Positions 4,383 through 11,260 of a stretch of DNA of 64,000 nt are shown piece after piece. Source of the DNA: a virus; IMG/VR virus record IMGVR_UViG_3300030117_004164, positions 7,216 through 71,215 of that record. One strand, written 5' to 3'. Position numbers and translations under genes: made by a program. Numbering within the stretch: position 1 is the stretch's first letter; each line of letters starts with the position of its first letter. The notes beneath the pieces are model-generated. The model worked only from the letters and a program-made list of their open reading frames with translations. It did not search any database and had not been told where the DNA came from.

Positions 4383-4663
4383 CATATGGTAGTGAAGGCG
4401 TGAAATGATAGATTAAAGAAGGAGATTTATCTCCTCTTTATTCTACTTATTAACGTATTACGCGAATAGCGTAATAAAGTGAATGAGAATAGCCTTAAAC
4501 TACCCTTAATGGGAGTAGTTCACTCGTAAAGGTATCTATTCCCTGAAAGCGGATTAAAAGAAATTTCAACCACCAACACTAATGCGGCGGCTGAAAACGC
4601 CAGACGCTTTTAATCCTATGAAACCATTAACGGCTCCTATCATATGGTAATATAACACTTTGG
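4383..4663 (+). ncRNA. Structured non-coding element, copy A (paralog of 6896-7211)
   Basis: Same order of hairpins and motifs as copy B, with compensatory stem changes; strand chosen from the GAATA loop. Confidence 0.6.
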
Positions 4664-4688
4664 GATTATATTGCCCCGAAGGGCGTAA

Positions 4689-4805
4689 TTAAATGTTTTT
4701 TATGTGATAAGCAGGAATTTCTCCGTCTTTTACACATTTGAGACAATAATATGCTCTACCGCCCCACTTCATTTTTTCTCCACAACCAATTGTTTTACAT
4801 TTCAT
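4689..4805 (-). CDS. 38-aa Zn-finger microprotein (MKCKTIGCGEK...YYCLKC)
   Basis: Hand-translated; GGAGA SD, ATGA overlap with upstream gene. Confidence 0.5.
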   Translation of the reverse strand: MKCKTIGCGEKMKWGGRAYYCLKCVKDGEIPAYHIKNI

Positions 4806-4960: not shown

Positions 4961-5179
4961 TTATTCTTCCTCCATTATACATCTTCCACATCTACAAATA
5001 GGCCAATCTTCTTGACCTCTTCCAGCCAGTAGAATAGAATCCCAATACCTATCAATATTTTCAAAATTCTCTTTAGCCCGAACCATTAAATGTGCAACTA
5101 CTTGACGCATTGGTGATTCAGGGTCTTTAGCAATCCAAGGTTCTAGTTTAGCAAATCTTGTATTCCATTTTTCATTCAT
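4961..5179 (-). CDS. Hypothetical protein with C-terminal CxCxxC
   Basis: ORF track. Confidence 0.6.
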   Translation of the reverse strand: MNEKWNTRFAKLEPWIAKDPESPMRQVVAHLMVRAKENFENIDRYWDSILLAGRGQEDWPICRCGRCIMEEE

Positions 5180-5295
5180 TCCTCTTCCTCCAATTCTCCT
5201 GTTTCTGGATTTAGTTTCATTCCAGCAATAGCCATGAGAATAGCAAAAGCGTGTTCCTCATAAGTTAATCTATCAGTTGATTCCGTTGACGTCAT
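5176..5295 (-). CDS. 39-aa microprotein (MTSTESTDRL...LEEEE)
   Basis: Hand-translated; strong GGAGGT SD; ATGA overlap. Confidence 0.55.
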   Translation of the reverse strand: MTSTESTDRLTYEEHAFAILMAIAGMKLNPETGELEEEE

Positions 5296-5430
5296 TAAAA
5301 TTACCTCCTTTTTCAGAAAAAACTGCCCCACAATTAAAACAGCCAAAATGAACAGTGTATTTCATCCCCCAACGTGGATGATAATTCCACTCTCTATCTA
5401 TTTCAACAATAATCTTACCATTACAACAAC

Positions 5431-5643
5431 TCATGCTTTCACTTCCATTTTTCCGATTTCAATTCTTAGTTTCATTTCATCAAATTCCTCTAAAGCCTCT
5501 TGAGTCAATTCCATCAACTCTTCAATCGTATTAGACTTAATAGATAATTCCTTAACAATCAAAATACCATTTCTATCGTGACCGACTTTCAAGGAATATT
5601 TCTTCTCTTGTATTTCTTCTTTTTTCCAAAACATTTTCATCAA
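5431..5643 (-). CDS. Hypothetical protein
   Basis: ORF track. Confidence 0.55.
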   Translation of the reverse strand: MMKMFWKKEEIQEKKYSLKVGHDRNGILIVKELSIKSNTIEELMELTQEALEEFDEMKLRIEIGKMEVKA

Positions 5644-5746
5644 ATCCTGTTATTGACAATTAACAACTCGACCCACGTTATACCTTGGGGCATACAAAGT
5701 ACCACCATATGGTATGGTTTAAACTTTGGGGTAAACAAGGCCCCAA

Positions 5747-6157
5747 TCAAAATAATTGAGAGAAGCACTTTGCACCGATAATTTGTCCTTTATCGTTTCT
5801 AACAGTTTGACCAACCATTAGAAAATCTGTGCGATTGGTGAATGTTTCGCAAACTGCGCGTGAGACAATATACCACACATTATCACGAATAGGTGGCAAT
5901 TCCATACCGTCATCAGGAATTTTCATTTGAACGGATTTAATTGGAATAACAAACTCATCATCAACTGCGGTGCAACTGCTAACGGGTTCATAATAAATAT
6001 CAAAGTGAAATTCACCCAATGGTCCCCATTCTTCAGAAAGCCGAATAGTGTTACCTGATGGTTGAATGGATAGCAAAACTTCACCATTATCGTCTACCAT
6101 GTTAATTTCGTGGGGTGTCATGTTTACAAATGTTTGATTGTCTTCATAGATTGTCAT
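5747..6157 (-). CDS. Conserved viral hypothetical protein (NxTPH...YIVS...VRN-GQIIG type)
   Basis: Motif pattern I recall from phage/archaeal virus proteins; GGAGA SD. Confidence 0.7.
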   Translation of the reverse strand: MTIYEDNQTFVNMTPHEINMVDDNGEVLLSIQPSGNTIRLSEEWGPLGEFHFDIYYEPVSSCTAVDDEFVIPIKSVQMKIPDDGMELPPIRDNVWYIVSRAVCETFTNRTDFLMVGQTVRNDKGQIIGAKCFSQLF

Positions 6158-6254
6158 ATTATCATCTCCTGTAATATAACAGGTTTTATTTTATTTTACT
6201 TATGAGATTGCAAAGCACATCATATGGTTGTAATGAAACTTTGTGAAATTCAAC

Positions 6255-6705
6255 CACAAAAAAAAAGAAAAGGAAATCCGCAGGTTTGCCAATTAGTGCC
6301 TATTGCATGCTCCAATACTTCTAGTGATTATCGGCCGATTTCACTATTCTTTGTCTGATACAAGTTGCTATCAGTTTCTTGACCTAACTGCTTCATTCCC
6401 AAATGGAATAAGAGGTGTCGATGGGATTACGTCGGATAACGCCTTCGCCATAAGTTTTCATCGTATCTCCTAGAATTCTGTTTCTTGAATTATAGTCTTC
6501 GATTACTTCCAACCACCCCACTAGAGCGTTATTTTCTCTAATGTTCCACTGACCGCGCTACACGGTGATAACCGAAGTTATCTTGTTCTCAGCCATTTGG
6601 CCATCAAACGTTCCTGCTAAGGAATCTCGGAGGTGTGCATTATTCCTGATAAGGGAATTATTCTGCCACGACAATGCTGAAGCCGCTAAGCCCCAGACAA
6701 TAAAA
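6255..6705 (-). ncRNA. Candidate ~450-nt structured ncRNA
   Basis: No credible ORF, raised GC, multiple hairpins including GAUAAC(UUCG)GUUAUC at 6567-6582; oligo-T tract at the 3' end (6258-6270). Confidence 0.55.
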
Positions 6706-6895
6706 CAAAAATGACATTCTATTACTTTCGGGGTTGCAAAGCACACCATATGATTGGAGAAAGGTTTTTAGGTCTGCGTATAGCAGAAATACCGTTAAGA
6801 AAACCCTACAATCTCAAAAATAGGGCCAAGGCCTAACCCTTAAATGCCTAGTGTTTTATGAAATAAACAAGTAATTTCAAAAACACACCCATGAC

Positions 6896-7211
6896 CATAT
6901 GGTACGAGGAGTGCTTAAATAAATTTATGATAGTTTTAAGAGGAAGATGAAATCTTCCCTTAATACTGCCGCTAGGTTTGGTATTATGTGCGAATAGCAT
7001 ATAATAAAGAAAACCGGAATAAATTTATTTAATTTAAACGACGAGTTACCCGAAAAAAAATCCTTTAGGACTATTGAAACTAAAGTATTCGCTAAAAGAC
7101 GCGGAAAATAGAATTAATTACCACCTATTAATAATGCGGCGGCAATCAATTCCATATACATTTTCCGCTCGAAAACATTAATGTTCCCCTATCATATGGT
7201 AGCACTTTGGG
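6896..7211 (+). ncRNA. Structured non-coding element, copy B (paralog of 4383-4663)
   Basis: See copy A. Confidence 0.6.
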
Positions 7212-7295
7212 CTAAATAAAGAGTCCCCAAAATCAAATTTCTCAGAAAATTAATTCCAAGAAAAATGATTTTGAGGGTGAGGGCGACAAATAACC

Positions 7296-7865
7296 TCACT
7301 CTTCTTCTTCAACCTCCGTTGAAGTTTCTGCCACGGGCGCGTGAATTACAGGAATATGCCCGTTCATCTCTCCATCCCAATAAATCGTATCATTAGATGA
7401 TTTCTCACCAGATGCAATCTTTAGGGAATTGCGGTAATAGGTGGTCAAACGGGACTTCATGCTCTTCATCAAAGACTCCGCATATTCGTCAGAATCGGCG
7501 TAAGTGCCGCCACCTGATTTACCGTGCTTCCGAACGATTTCACCATAAAGAGGGTCCGTCGCAAAAAACGCAGAAGCCGCCTCTGCGTATTGAGCAGCAA
7601 TCTGGGTTATTGTTTGACTTACTTCTTCCGGCAGGTCTGATTCCCGACCGCGTGAAATTGGGGAGTTCGGAAGCATCGAGAAAAGATTCGTAATATTATT
7701 CCAGAACTTTTTTCTGTTTGCTACATCTTCACGACCTTGGTCAAGGTTCCAGCGGATAACCGCTTCCATATCACCAATGTCGTTGTTCTCCAAATAAAGA
7801 AGAACTCTGCTTTCATTCTTAGACCACTTTGGGTCATCCATACTATAATCAGCCATTTTTTTCAC
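7296..7865 (-). CDS. Hypothetical protein, paralog of 9341..9844
   Basis: Shared SPxxRGxxSxLP, KHxKSGGGxYA, WDG and APVxxxxxxEEE motifs. Confidence 0.8.
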   Translation of the reverse strand: MKKMADYSMDDPKWSKNESRVLLYLENNDIGDMEAVIRWNLDQGREDVANRKKFWNNITNLFSMLPNSPISRGRESDLPEEVSQTITQIAAQYAEAASAFFATDPLYGEIVRKHGKSGGGTYADSDEYAESLMKSMKSRLTTYYRNSLKIASGEKSSNDTIYWDGEMNGHIPVIHAPVAETSTEVEEEE

Positions 7866-8226
7866 TTCCTAAGTTTTTTTTCTCCTGTGAAGGTTCTTTG
7901 TCGCCCTCATAAAAACGATTTTTGTTTTTTTATACCTTGAGGTGACAAAGTACCACCATATGGTTTTAATTATTATGGCGGTGAAACGTAACAAAGGTGA
8001 AGCCTTTGTCGCCATTGTAAGAAAAACCTTAAGGACAATTTATCGAGTTCAATTCCCAATATGCTATTCGCATATCTTCATTTCCACCCGTAAATATTGC
8101 TTACGCAACCATATGGTAATATTATGAACTTTGGGGATAATAACCCCAAATGTCCCCAAGAGCGGCAACGAATCGCCACTCAAGGGGAGGTTGGTAATCA
8201 ATGGGGGTTTCAGGCTCATTTCTGGC

Positions 8227-8628
8227 CTATTCGTGCTTTCCACGCTTGCGACGAATGATTTCATCAATCGTCTGCTTGGCGAAATCAGCCGCATCGACAA
8301 ATGGTGCAAAAATGCCGTTCTTGCCCTTCTGGAACAAATGACGTTCATAATCAAGATAGAACGCCATCAGGTCGTTAGTCATACCTTCTTGGTCATCTGC
8401 CATATCTGCCAATACTGGGTCAATACCCTTCAATTCATCGTAGAGTGCCTCATGGCCACCCTTCTTCAAAATTTCACGAATTGCGCCCCAAACGAATTTC
8501 TCCATCATAGGGGTTACATCCATGTTGACCAATTCGGTCAATTCGGCTTTTTCACTGTCTGTCATATCGCAATCATCACTTTCAAGAACTTCCTTCAAGC
8601 GATTAATGCGCTGTTGGTTTTTGCTCAT
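8227..8628 (-). CDS. Hypothetical acidic helical protein
   Basis: GGAGGT SD; protein-like composition, unlike the overlapping shadow ORFs. Confidence 0.7.
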   Translation of the reverse strand: MSKNQQRINRLKEVLESDDCDMTDSEKAELTELVNMDVTPMMEKFVWGAIREILKKGGHEALYDELKGIDPVLADMADDQEGMTNDLMAFYLDYERHLFQKGKNGIFAPFVDAADFAKQTIDEIIRRKRGKHE

Positions 8629-9340
8629 ACTTTGCTACCTCCAATATAACGAATTTAGGGGGTGTATAGTTGATACTCCCCAAAGTTACAGTATCGTATA
8701 TACACCCATATGGATGGAACATTCCCAATTGGGGGGTCTTTGCTCGCCATAGGCAGTTAATGCTTATTCAGCATTTTCCCAATTGCCATAGCGAGTAAAT
8801 CCCTATCTCCATATGGTTGTAATTAATTCATTTTAATTAATTGTATCTTTCGTGTGGAGGGTGGCTCTTTTGTGCGACTCGCAACTAACCCATATAAACG
8901 ACGTACTGTAAGCCACCAAAGAATATTCATCTGAAGAAATGAGGTCGTTCTTTTAGGTATATTCCAATTGACAATATACCATATACTATACCATATAGTA
9001 TAGAGTATAAATATAGAATATGTAATATTCATATTAGATAAACGCCCACGCATACCATTCTTTAAAATGGATTTAGAAGTAATGTTTAGGGATTTATGAT
9101 ACCTAATTGGCTATGATGAGCAGGTCACGCATGACTTTGCTTAAAATGAAGGCGAACTAGGTTCCGGTTTATTGGTAACATATCCATGAAAATTGCCACA
9201 ATGCAATATATATCATATGTATCACCGTGATACCTATTTCATAGGATTTATATGCTAAACACCTAATGTCAAGTCGCGCCGAGGCGTATGGGCAGTTTAG
9301 AATGATTATGGATGGATAAATTGCTTAAAATAAAACAAAG

Positions 9341-9844
9341 GTGAAAGAAATGGCTATGGAAGGATGGCAAGCACGAACTGAAGAAGTAGCGGAATTTATC
9401 GCAGTAGATGGATTTGACGCACAATTAAGACAAGTTGTTCAGTTCCAAATTAATTTTGGAAATGAAAACACAGACCAGCAAGAGCGAGTTTGGGACTCAA
9501 TTAAGTCCATGATTCGTGGATTAGACGGTAGCCCCGTTCGACGTGGAAAGAAGAGTAATCTTCCTGCAAGCGTAAATGTTGCTATTGCACAGATTACCGG
9601 AGAAGTTGCTTCATTGGCGGCTGATTGGTATGATGGCAATTCGCTATTACAGGCTGTATTGCTGAAACACGCAAAGTCTGGTGGCGGTGCATATGCAAAT
9701 GGTGAAGAGTATGGTGCTTCACTTTCAACAAAGGTTGGTTCACGACTAAAGAAGATGTATTCCGAGGGAACTTGGGATGGAACTACTGATGGTCTTTCAG
9801 CACCAGCACCAGTTGAAACCGCGTCTTATGACGAAGAAGAGTAA
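9341..9844 (+). CDS. Hypothetical protein, paralog of 7296..7865
   Basis: Motif sharing; GGTGA SD. Confidence 0.8.
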   Translation: MKEMAMEGWQARTEEVAEFIAVDGFDAQLRQVVQFQINFGNENTDQQERVWDSIKSMIRGLDGSPVRRGKKSNLPASVNVAIAQITGEVASLAADWYDGNSLLQAVLLKHAKSGGGAYANGEEYGASLSTKVGSRLKKMYSEGTWDGTTDGLSAPAPVETASYDEEE

Positions 9845-9891
9845 TTAAATTAACTCTTTAAAAAAAATCAAGATGACGTACATGGATGCAA

Positions 9892-9943
9892 TCGGGGAGA
9901 TGGGGTTTTATGCCTTATCTCTCCGGTTGTGTCCTATTTTTTT
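9892..9943 (+). terminator. Hairpin plus T-tract
   Basis: ATCGGGGAGATGGGG...CCTTATCTCTCCGGT then TATTTTTTT. Confidence 0.55.
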
Positions 9944-9954
9944 AATTTCAAATT

Positions 9955-10350
9955 CTTAAAATATCATAATTAAAATGATATATTATACATGATTAAAGTA
10001 ACGTTCGAGTGAACCCACTTCCTAGTAAAGAAACCGACGATGCGTACTTATGCAACAAAACGCGCAGTTTATTTATCAGTATCACATTTATATCAGTATT
10101 GATACTATATTTTATGGCCGAACAGGGTACTAGAAGTGTATTATTTTATTATATATATCATTATATCATTTATATCATATATATCTCTCTATTTTTCTCT
10201 GCTTCTCCCTATCCCCTTACACACGCGGCCCCATGTGATACTGATACTTATGATACTTATGAGCATGATATAAATGATACTTATGGCAAAGCGGGGTCTG
10301 GTTCGTGCATAAAATTCAACATATCATCACTGATACAAACGCTGATATTT
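9955..10350. repeat. TGATA/TATCA iteron-like cluster, origin candidate
   Basis: Many TATCA copies on the left, TGATA on the right; 14-bp inverted repeat 10074-10087 / 10233-10246. Confidence 0.55.
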
Positions 10351-11078: not shown

Positions 11079-11260
11079 GGGTCATTGGCGCAGTTAGGTA
11101 GCGCAACGGGCTTTTATGAGGTTTGCCGAATAATAAGAAGAAAATCTCTTCACAATCGGAATAGTAGTTTTATGGGTTATCTTCTATCCCTTTCATGTTT
11201 CTACGAACTTCTTTCCTCAAAGATACCCGTTGGTCAAGGGTTCGAATCCCTTATGACCCG
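11079..11260 (+). tRNA. tRNA-Lys(UUU) with 108-nt intron at 37/38 (11117-11224)
   Basis: GGGTCAT/ATGACCC acceptor, GCGC D-stem, ACGGG/CCCGT anticodon stem, TTCGAAT T-loop, canonical bulge-helix-bulge. Confidence 0.92.

Follow-up and report, generated by a model that had tools for sequence, protein, structure and literature searches.

Riboswitch and attenuator leaders carry a terminator expression platform, the cyclic-dinucleotide riboswitches being one example. In archaea, transcription terminates at oligo-T, and it is on this basis that a U tract closing an RNA may be taken for a terminator. On the protein side, the ring nucleases of the Crn4 family are described in passages of PMC12830947 as cleaving cA3, cA4 and cA6, and their phage copies are suggested there to be anti-CRISPRs. 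Magroviruses, which are abundant, infect archaea of the uncultured Marine Group II, and passages of Philosof et al. 2017 (PMC5434244) list ribonucleotide reductase, a GroEL-type chaperonin, tRNA-Leu and tRNA-Arg for those of group B. In the magrovirus literature, as represented by passages and search listings, no mention was found of a non-coding RNA (ncRNA), a promoter element or a ring nuclease of these viruses. The locus described here brings these subjects together. It lies at 6258-6700 on the minus strand of a 64,000-nucleotide (nt) window, bases 7216-71215 of the 71,215-bp IMG/VR record IMGVR_UViG_3300030117_004164, and all coordinates below are positions in that window. The region is very probably the gene of a genuine non-coding, highly structured RNA of ~435 nt, which stands directly ahead of a gene (crn4) for a predicted Crn4-family ring nuclease. 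The RNA represents a new two-domain family, small and so far undescribed, of marine, probably archaeal, viruses.

The case for the RNA comes from its homologs, three lineages of which, besides that of L002, were reached through loci anchored on the neighbouring Crn4 protein and on a conserved early protein of 167 amino acids (aa). The locus L002, on the same IMG/VR contig as L003, is collinear with the window from 6704 to 5176 and is 95.0% identical in the 5' domain, 88.5% in the 3' domain and 86.1% in the adjacent gene. A full-length copy in L084 (nhmmer E 6.6e-31) is ~70% identical by eye, while in L085 the 5' domain (E 4.8e-10) is followed by a 3' part that is longer and divergent and ends in an invariant GCAAACCU block. 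L008 and L016, which are identical to each other there, hold the 3' domain alone (E 4.2e-11). The covariance model (CM) R1 recovers the 3' domain in L002, L008/L016 and L084 (E 9.4e-6) and weakly in L086 (E 0.068), and the 5' domain was not found in L086 or in the kinase-anchored relative L082/L083. The RNA is thus made of two separable domains, the 3' one occurring also by itself in another virus, a feature that goes beyond what the first-pass annotation of the sequence had proposed. In exact-pattern scans of viral contigs, a 27-mer and a gapped 3'-domain pattern matched the L002 contig only, and a family pattern matched only the contigs of L084 and L085. Two pattern scans of 185,579 prokaryote genomes returned zero matches, a result that is silent on diverged copies in host genomes. 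Two further loci, L004 and L005, came up through 18-mers and were rejected as chance matches with only ~20 nt in common. The parts of the RNA are the following.

6405-6700, minus strand: 5' domain, ~296 nt, 12 helices (alignment A6 of four diverged sequences, RNAalifold, pair counts)
6611-6624, minus strand: hairpin UUCCU-UAGC-AGGAA, helix 5; the closing pair covaries U-A / G-C / C-G
6567-6582, minus strand: hairpin GAUAAC-UUCG-GUUAUC, helix 8; three of six pairs changed on both sides, GAAUAC/GUAUUC in L084
6552-6566, minus strand: hairpin ACCGU-(G)UAGC-GCGGU, the second with a conserved UAGC tip, helix 9; three of five pairs changed on both sides
6503-6513, minus strand: conserved joining strand GUUGGAAGUAA, identical in the window, L002 and L084 and partly retained in L085
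6267-6404, minus strand: 3' domain, ~138 nt, six helices (RNAalifold, CM R1, pair counts)
6393-6411, minus strand: hairpin UUAUUCC-AUUUG-GGAAUGA (RNAfold of the segment in the window, L002 and L016; AUCCC/GGGAU read by eye in L084)

In the 5' domain, CACCUC 6635-6630 pairs over a long range with GGGGUG 6519-6514, and the resulting helix closes a multi-helix junction of five hairpins. RNAalifold on the four-sequence alignment yields 81 pairs, 37 of them with compensatory changes. When 54 pairs in the 12 helices were counted, 97.2% of 215 cells were paired as against 81.1±1.9 in shuffles, and both sides had changed in 26 of the 54 pairs; shuffles gave 11.7±2.1 and reached that figure in 0 of 500, and slid controls gave 2-5. 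Each of the 12 helices has at least one double-sided change. Several hairpin tips are invariant as well, including the UAGC loop of 6611-6624 (identical in the window, L002, L084 and L085), the UAGCG of 6552-6566 (four of four sequences) and a UAACG loop. As a mere count, UAGC is not significantly enriched in the RNA (4 against 1.1-1.6 expected, p ~0.07).

Turning to the 3' domain, the helices P1 (GGGAA 6400-6396 with UUUCC 6276-6272) and P2 (GCAG 6391-6388 with CUGC 6283-6280) close a three-hairpin junction that includes CUGAUA/UAUCAG and UAGUGA/UCACUA, and P1 abuts a U tract. Across five sequences aligned by the covariance model, the 31 pairs counted are 94.9% paired, and both sides have changed in 13 of them (6.5±1.5 in shuffles, 0-4 in slid controls). 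Compensatory changes are therefore present in all 12 + 6 helices of the two domains, and the large structured viral RNA that the first-pass annotation had put forward, with homolog covariation as one of its checks, is supported by diverged homologs (26/54 and 13/31 pairs changed on both sides). The individual stems that it had picked out are also in place: the hairpin GATAAC-CGAA-GTTATC at 6567-6582, CTGATA/TATCAG at 6355-6374, TAGTGA/TCACTA and two ATTCC/GGAAT hairpins. For GGGAA 6400-6396, the 5' strand of P1, there is an alternative to UUUCC 6276-6272: it can pair instead with the upstream arm UUAUUCC 6411-6405. At the level of sequence or RNAfold, the window, L002, L016 and L084 (four of the four examined) each contain both P1 and this competing hairpin.

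The strand and the non-coding character of the RNA follow from the same comparisons. With G·U in 24 of 215 cells, the 5' domain is 97.2% paired on the minus strand and 86.5% on the opposite one, and the 3' domain 94.9% and 87.6%, which supports the minus strand as originally proposed. A credible open reading frame (ORF) is likewise missing, as had been noticed. The longest frames in 6255-6752 are 63, 56, 49 and 42 aa, and those of 63, 56 and 42 aa have no PHROG match. L002, although 95% identical, differs from the window by 1-nt indels within the 5' domain and by another in the loop of a hairpin where the two domains meet. Substitutions between the window and L002 fall 4/5/4 on the three phases in the RNA as against 12/11/28 in the adjacent crn4, so that the RNA shows no codon periodicity, nor, against L002, any of the codon-type conservation that the first-pass annotation had named as telling against it. 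The raised GC content, also remarked upon at first pass, is real (0.39-0.475 against 0.31-0.365 in the flanks) but not peculiar to this locus: the GC content of the coding genes at 7300-7700, 8100-8500 and 9500-9800 is just as high (0.44-0.49).

On either side, the RNA is bordered by elements that may govern its transcription.

6733-6754, minus strand: promoter-associated upstream element, read directly, with putative promoter function; palindrome ACCATATGGT at 6745-6754, then GTGCTTTGCAAC
6701-6732, minus strand: divergent A/T-rich spacer with a putative TATA-like box; transcription would start at ~6695-6700
6258-6271, minus strand: oligo-U tract UUUUCUUUUUUUUU (U4CU9), read directly, immediately after P1; putative archaeal-type terminator
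6208-6228, minus strand: second upstream element, CATATGATGTGCTTTGCAA, read directly, ahead of the next gene (crn4)

An upstream element common to the neighbouring cassettes, as claimed at first pass, is indeed found: CATATGGTGTGCTTTGCAA runs on the minus strand from 6752, and the near-identical CATATGATGTGCTTTGCAA runs from 6226 ahead of the next gene. With at most one mismatch allowed, CATATGGT is found at 121 places in the window, where shuffles give 64.6±7.7. The exact CATATG sites bordered by the upstream element all lie between 4033 and 8810, and equivalent elements precede the RNA homologs in L002, L084, L085 and L016. Between the CATATG element and 6700, the ~50-nt spacer is only 58.5% identical to that of L002, and conservation sets in abruptly at ~6700, in agreement with the predicted start of the RNA. 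In L084, a TTTAAAT box lies ~26 nt ahead of the first hairpin. At the other end, the 3' oligo-U noticed earlier corresponds to the UUUUCUUUUUUUUU tract at 6271-6258 on the minus strand, whose counterpart in L002, UUUAUUUUUUU, has the same position. Because the RNA ends at this U4CU9 tract, a separate transcript is the likelier arrangement in this virus.

Sequencing runs provide a second line of evidence. Runs containing window sequence come from marine, seawater or estuarine samples; each of 14 DNA runs contains at least half of the sampled words, and in six RNA runs the share is 0.28-0.45. Contig cover was placed, on 5000-8000, for four of the six RNA runs, X16 and X19 being outside the set. 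Each of these four marine RNA libraries, from four studies, has one contig of 207-256 nt that falls wholly within 6415-6689.

6440-6689, strand not given by the contig: RNA-library contig of X15, depth 26.1
6454-6662, strand not given by the contig: RNA-library contig of X17, depth 3.6
6433-6686, strand not given by the contig: RNA-library contig of X18, depth 3.79
6415-6668, strand not given by the contig: RNA-library contig of X20, depth 20.6

Contig cover was absent from the 3' domain (6267-6404), crn4 and the other flanks within 5000-8000, gaps that carry no evidential weight. The contig ends (6689/6686; 6415-6454) lie near polymorphic sites and so are not RNA ends, although the ends at 6689 and 6686 from two studies give a weak hint of an RNA 5' end near 6690-6700. 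Variant contigs of X18 and X20 differ by seven bases and two indels, all within 6461-6521, and in local folds they keep the helices there, AUCG/CGAU becoming ACCG/CGGU and CUA/UAG becoming UGA/UCA with a register shift. The metatranscriptome check suggested at first pass has accordingly been answered for cover, by the contigs of four RNA libraries on 6415-6689, contigs carrying no information on strand.

Downstream of the RNA, on the same strand, lie two small genes.

5747-6157, minus strand: Crn4-family ring nuclease gene, 136 aa (profile, Foldseek, residue alignment)
5431-5643, minus strand: second small gene, 70 aa; a homolog comes after the RNA in L085 and before the weak 3'-domain-like match in L086

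Pfam, PHROGs and a protein atlas gave no function for the 136-aa protein, the PHROG matches being to families of unknown function only. A profile of 66 homologs matches the PDB structures of Crn4b (9r7b, E 1.2e-21) and Crn4a (9sma, E 2e-16), as well as 9qs9 (E 2.1e-14). An AlphaFold model of the protein has a pLDDT of 90, and Foldseek ranks 1-7 with this model are all Crn4 (probability 1.00, TM 0.58-0.75); an earlier model from seven sequences, with a pLDDT of 43, was not used. Residues T14, H16 and R120 align with T13, H15 and R112 of Crn4a, which are implicated in binding and catalysis in passages of PMC12830947, and among the 66 homologs T14 and H16 are invariant and R120 nearly so. The product of 5747-6157 is accordingly identified, by sequence profile and structural model, as a Crn4-family ring nuclease and a predicted degrader of cyclic oligoadenylate immune signals. 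Crn4 relatives are encoded at ~76 metagenomic loci from many habitats. The copies at 4847-5209 in L084 and ~5008-5372 in L016, like that of the window, belong to presumed archaeal viruses and conserve the catalytic T, H and R; the word 'archaea' is absent from the main text of PMC12830947.

Crn4 homologs are present in the window, L002, L084 and L016, with 29-48% identity between lineages, and were not found in the examined parts of L083, L085 and L086. At each of the four loci that encode Crn4, the gene is immediately preceded, on the same strand, by the RNA or, in L016, by the 3' domain alone. In L084 and L016, neither a CATATG promoter element nor a long T-run separates the two, and the RNA runs into crn4 as a continuous leader; there, it would be part of the crn4 transcript or be processed from it. 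The first-pass description of the RNA as stand-alone is therefore probably right for the window, with its own upstream element and U4CU9 tract, but not for those two relatives.

The virus itself is represented by a record estimated to be 75% complete. According to Pfam, the window encodes ribonucleotide reductase, a Cpn60/TCP-1-family chaperonin, a three-domain ATP-dependent DNA ligase, a family-B DNA polymerase (PolB) and a tail tube protein. At gathering thresholds, Rfam 15 finds two tRNA matches in the whole window and nothing else: a tRNA-Leu(UAA) and a match spanning 182 nt. The latter, at 11079-11260 on the plus strand, implies an insertion of ~110 nt, and ARAGORN makes no call there; its counterpart in L084 (9763-9936) is 174 nt long, so that the insertion measures ~100-110 nt. 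This may be an intron-carrying viral tRNA, which would fit an archaeal host. The combination of PolB, chaperonin, ribonucleotide reductase, tRNA-Leu and a second tRNA, together with the marine source, agrees with the group-B magroviruses. From this gene content and the passages of Philosof et al. 2017, we infer a group-B-like magrovirus, and an archaeal-virus setting is plausible. Close relatives are missing from the GenBank phage collection, where the best PolB matches by tblastn, to haloarchaeal tailed viruses, are 26% identical and T4-like ones are also distant; blastn of 5600-7400 against that collection gave zero matches.

The early region around the RNA is built of short cassettes. A cluster of ACCATATGGT palindromes with CAAAG/CTTTG arms, between 4033 and 8810, borders these cassettes, which are re-ordered, inverted or absent in related viruses with breakpoints at ACCATATGGT/CATATG sites. 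Window position 4641, for instance, is joined to 6904 in L002, and 7193-7879 is inverted in L082. The RNA is on the same strand as the 167-aa gene in L084 and L085 and on the opposite strand in the window; this flip, together with the re-ordering of segments in L002 and L082 at CATATG sites, indicates that the cassettes are mobile. In other words, related viruses have swapped, inverted and rearranged the ACCATATGGT-flanked cassettes of this early region, and the ACCATATGGT element may be an activator site that doubles as a recombination hotspot. Both GC skew and gene orientation switch sign at 8000-10000, beside the palindrome-rich region, and this interval may be a transcription divergence point or a replication origin.

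Other cassettes also lack a credible ORF. That at 6896-7193 (6895-7202 is 81% identical in L082) and that at 6752-6896 (6742-6904 is 96% identical in L002, and a minus-strand hairpin with a T-run lies at 6840-6822) may be further small RNAs. L016 has a ~120-nt cassette without an ORF between two CATATGG elements at 4655-4775, with hairpins UAUCAGC/GCUGAUA, just upstream of its 3'-domain copy. Among the proteins of the region, the 189-aa (7296-7865, minus strand) and 167-aa (9341-9844, plus strand) products look like paralogs that share a GKSGGG(T/A)YA motif. Glutamate-run ends (EEE/EEEE) occur on several early-region proteins, namely these two and those of 4961-5179 and 5176-5346. The 167-aa family counts 61 relatives; their names are uninformative, and no Pfam domain recurs among them.

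What the RNA does can be approached from its surroundings. Its position next to crn4 and its complex 5' junction favour a regulatory RNA of an anti-defence cassette, and we lean towards this reading of a new two-domain early viral RNA tied to crn4. The upstream element (ACCATATGGT plus GTGCTTTGCAA), of the type found at the surrounding short cassettes of the early region, would drive its transcription. The 5' domain would be the binding or sensing part, and the 3' domain would serve as a 3'-end or termination module that sets the balance between a stop at the U tract and run-on into the ring-nuclease gene. In this virus, the product would be released at the U tract as a separate RNA. A regulatory link to crn4 through the 3' domain is the more tentative part of this proposal and, taken by itself, less likely than not. 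A bolder version, and a decidedly improbable one, would have the RNA sense or sequester an immune second messenger, for instance cyclic tri-, tetra- or hexa-adenylate. As a sensor, its 5' domain would bind the signal once host defence fires, and the switch between P1 and the competing hairpin would let transcription reach crn4; as a sponge, the abundant RNA would itself soak up the signal. The only pointers to this version are the position before three divergent crn4 alleles, the switch-like anatomy and a weak likeness to the manA motif. If it were true, cyclic oligoadenylates would gain their first riboswitch-type RNA, and RNA-based control of a viral anti-defence gene would be known for the first time from an archaeal virus. 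More generally, a covariation-supported ~435-nt RNA that appears in RNA libraries of four studies would be the first candidate functional RNA of the magroviruses, and its position before Crn4 connects a large structured RNA to counter-defence against cyclic-nucleotide signalling in a form that is testable in vitro though the host is ungrown.

Several observations weigh against a structured RNA or against its link to crn4. To begin with the RNA, folding energy does not exceed that of shuffles on either strand (z -0.44 and -0.44 for 6255-6752), and sub-domains on the minus strand give z -0.59 to -0.97. The first-pass annotation had named this outcome as one that would tell against its proposal; it is not decisive, as null z-scores mean that the sequence alone does not beat chance and the support comes from homologs and RNA libraries instead. 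The pair counts are inflated, because the 5' structure was derived by RNAalifold from the same alignment that was used for counting and the 3' alignment was fitted to its model. They also draw on four (5') and five (3') distinct sequences, of which the window and L002 are close, and one change in L002 breaks a pair (A-U to A·A). The slid controls nevertheless argue that the covariation signal is real. As for the contigs, strand, true ends and level cannot be read from them, and DNA may be present in RNA libraries. A decayed gene or a DNA-level element (replication origin, recombination site or protein-binding array) in the palindrome-rich region at the GC-skew switch would agree with the null thermodynamic signal and with the cluster of ACCATATGGT palindromes near that switch, and another non-coding spacer, 5644-5746, is also 95% identical to L002. 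Such an explanation is very unlikely, because compensatory changes affect all 12 + 6 helices and the G·U pairs are workable on one strand only. The 1-nt indels, the missing codon periodicity and the contigs in four RNA libraries speak against it as well.

The link to crn4 faces observations of its own. The RNA of the window and that of L002 are set apart from crn4 by a strong U tract and a complete second upstream element. The copy in L085 comes before the homolog of the 70-aa gene, with no crn4 in the 16 kb examined, and in L086 the weak 3'-domain-like match (E 0.068) comes after the homolog of the 70-aa gene and before a T-rich run. Moreover, R1 has no significant match in ~70 other Crn4-homolog loci from other phages (best E 0.26, 0.65). 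The main rival builds on this pattern. It holds that the RNA is abundant and purely trans-acting, as a protein decoy, scaffold or small-molecule sponge, that its adjacency to crn4 results from the clustering or swapping of cassettes, and that the 3' domain serves transcripts in general as an end module, protecting or defining their 3' ends. Library contigs on the 5' domain, a complement of 18 helices and a size reminiscent of large stand-alone phage RNAs, and the shuffling and inversion of cassettes between relatives at CATATG elements are all in its favour. This possibility is nonetheless somewhat unlikely, given that the RNA or its 3' domain is directly followed by Crn4 alleles of three strongly divergent kinds (29-48% identical) and that L084 and L016 lack a promoter element or long T-run before crn4.

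At the other extreme, the RNA could be nothing but a classical cis-acting leader, a riboswitch-like attenuator of crn4, in which case the layout of the window would be derived and the RNA in the libraries would be prematurely terminated leader. The weak, partial likeness of the L084 copy to manA, a marine-phage riboswitch candidate in passages of PMC2864571, would suit this idea. So would the place of the RNA 5' of crn4 in four of four Crn4-bearing loci, its continuity with the gene in L084 and L016, and the mutually exclusive helices beside the U tract. It is an unlikely account all the same, since crn4 has a second upstream element before it in the window and L002, no crn4 was found in L085, and the 3' domain stands alone in L016, where the large 5' domain is thus dispensable for a leader role. 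The manA score is also far below 55.2, with zero manA matches in the window. To our knowledge, structure-dependent termination is not established in archaea, and whether RNA structure controls archaeal termination, or in what way, is poorly known. A regulatory RNA of the anti-defence cassette, probably separate in this virus and continuous with crn4 in some relatives, remains the reading that we prefer.

Among known RNA families, the closest in kind can be sought in Rfam. A check against known large-RNA families had been proposed at first pass, and no family reaches its gathering score at this locus: in 6100-6900, at E up to 10, there was only a chance SNORD28 match outside the RNA, and scans of L084 and L085 gave nothing on the RNA except manA at 19.5 bits in L084. 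Like GOLLD and ROOL, both of which are in Rfam, this is a large, ornate, virus-coded ncRNA in a genome that also has tRNA genes; unlike them, it is smaller (~435 nt) and matches no Rfam family at gathering score. The order of an RNA, a U-tract terminator and a small protein gene on the same strand recalls the layout of type III toxin-antitoxin systems, in which a structured RNA and a leaky terminator precede a protein gene. Here, however, the RNA lacks the tandem repeats of such systems, and the protein belongs to the ring nucleases and not to the ToxN-type endoribonucleases.

Closer in anatomy are the riboswitch leaders. The RNA has a conserved, covarying junction fold in which loops and joining strands are invariant, two helices beside a U tract that would exclude each other, and, at the Crn4-bearing loci, a position 5' of a gene whose product would act on a small signalling molecule, and the arrangement of P1 and its competing hairpin resembles an attenuator platform. 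It departs from such leaders in that no Rfam riboswitch model matches, crn4 has its own upstream element in the window, and the host is presumed archaeal. In the case of the viral ring nucleases (AcrIII-1 and phage Crn4b in passages of PMC12830947), it is the neighbouring gene and not the RNA that is alike, with the catalytic His and Arg conserved; those passages describe no RNA element upstream of crn4. Excerpts of PMC10690425 report ~8,500 short candidate viral RNAs from IMG/VR with motifs of 29-151 nt, some of which could overlap a single hairpin of this RNA.

The nearest named motif is manA (RF01745), which matches the first ~70 nt of the L084 copy with 19.5 bits (E 0.0081 in a 561-nt search); at E up to 10, the model matches neither the window nor the virus record as a whole. 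Membership was rejected, as a score of 19.5 bits in L084 only compares with a gathering score of 55.2 over a 192-position model. Within those ~70 nt, the order is manA-like: an initial hairpin, then GUGnCUGAAUAA, a hairpin, and then UAA closed by a 2-bp stem. The internal-loop module GAAUAA-hairpin-UAA, with a covarying stem, is present in all four family members (helices 2 and 3). The remaining stems of manA (a multi-stem junction, a second long hairpin and a pseudoknot) are gapped out by cmscan in L084. A possible CRYUG...CAGYG pairing, read by eye from the sequences and uncounted, needs a shifted alignment in the window. According to passages of Weinberg et al. 2010 (PMC2864571), manA is likewise marine, virus-borne and commonly 5' of genes, a riboswitch candidate with its ligand unassigned. 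The present RNA is more than twice as long, with another junction topology and a separate 3' domain, and it belongs to a presumed archaeal virus, whereas the hosts of manA are cyanophages or gamma-proteobacteria. At most, then, the likeness marks a shared sub-motif or a very distant relative.

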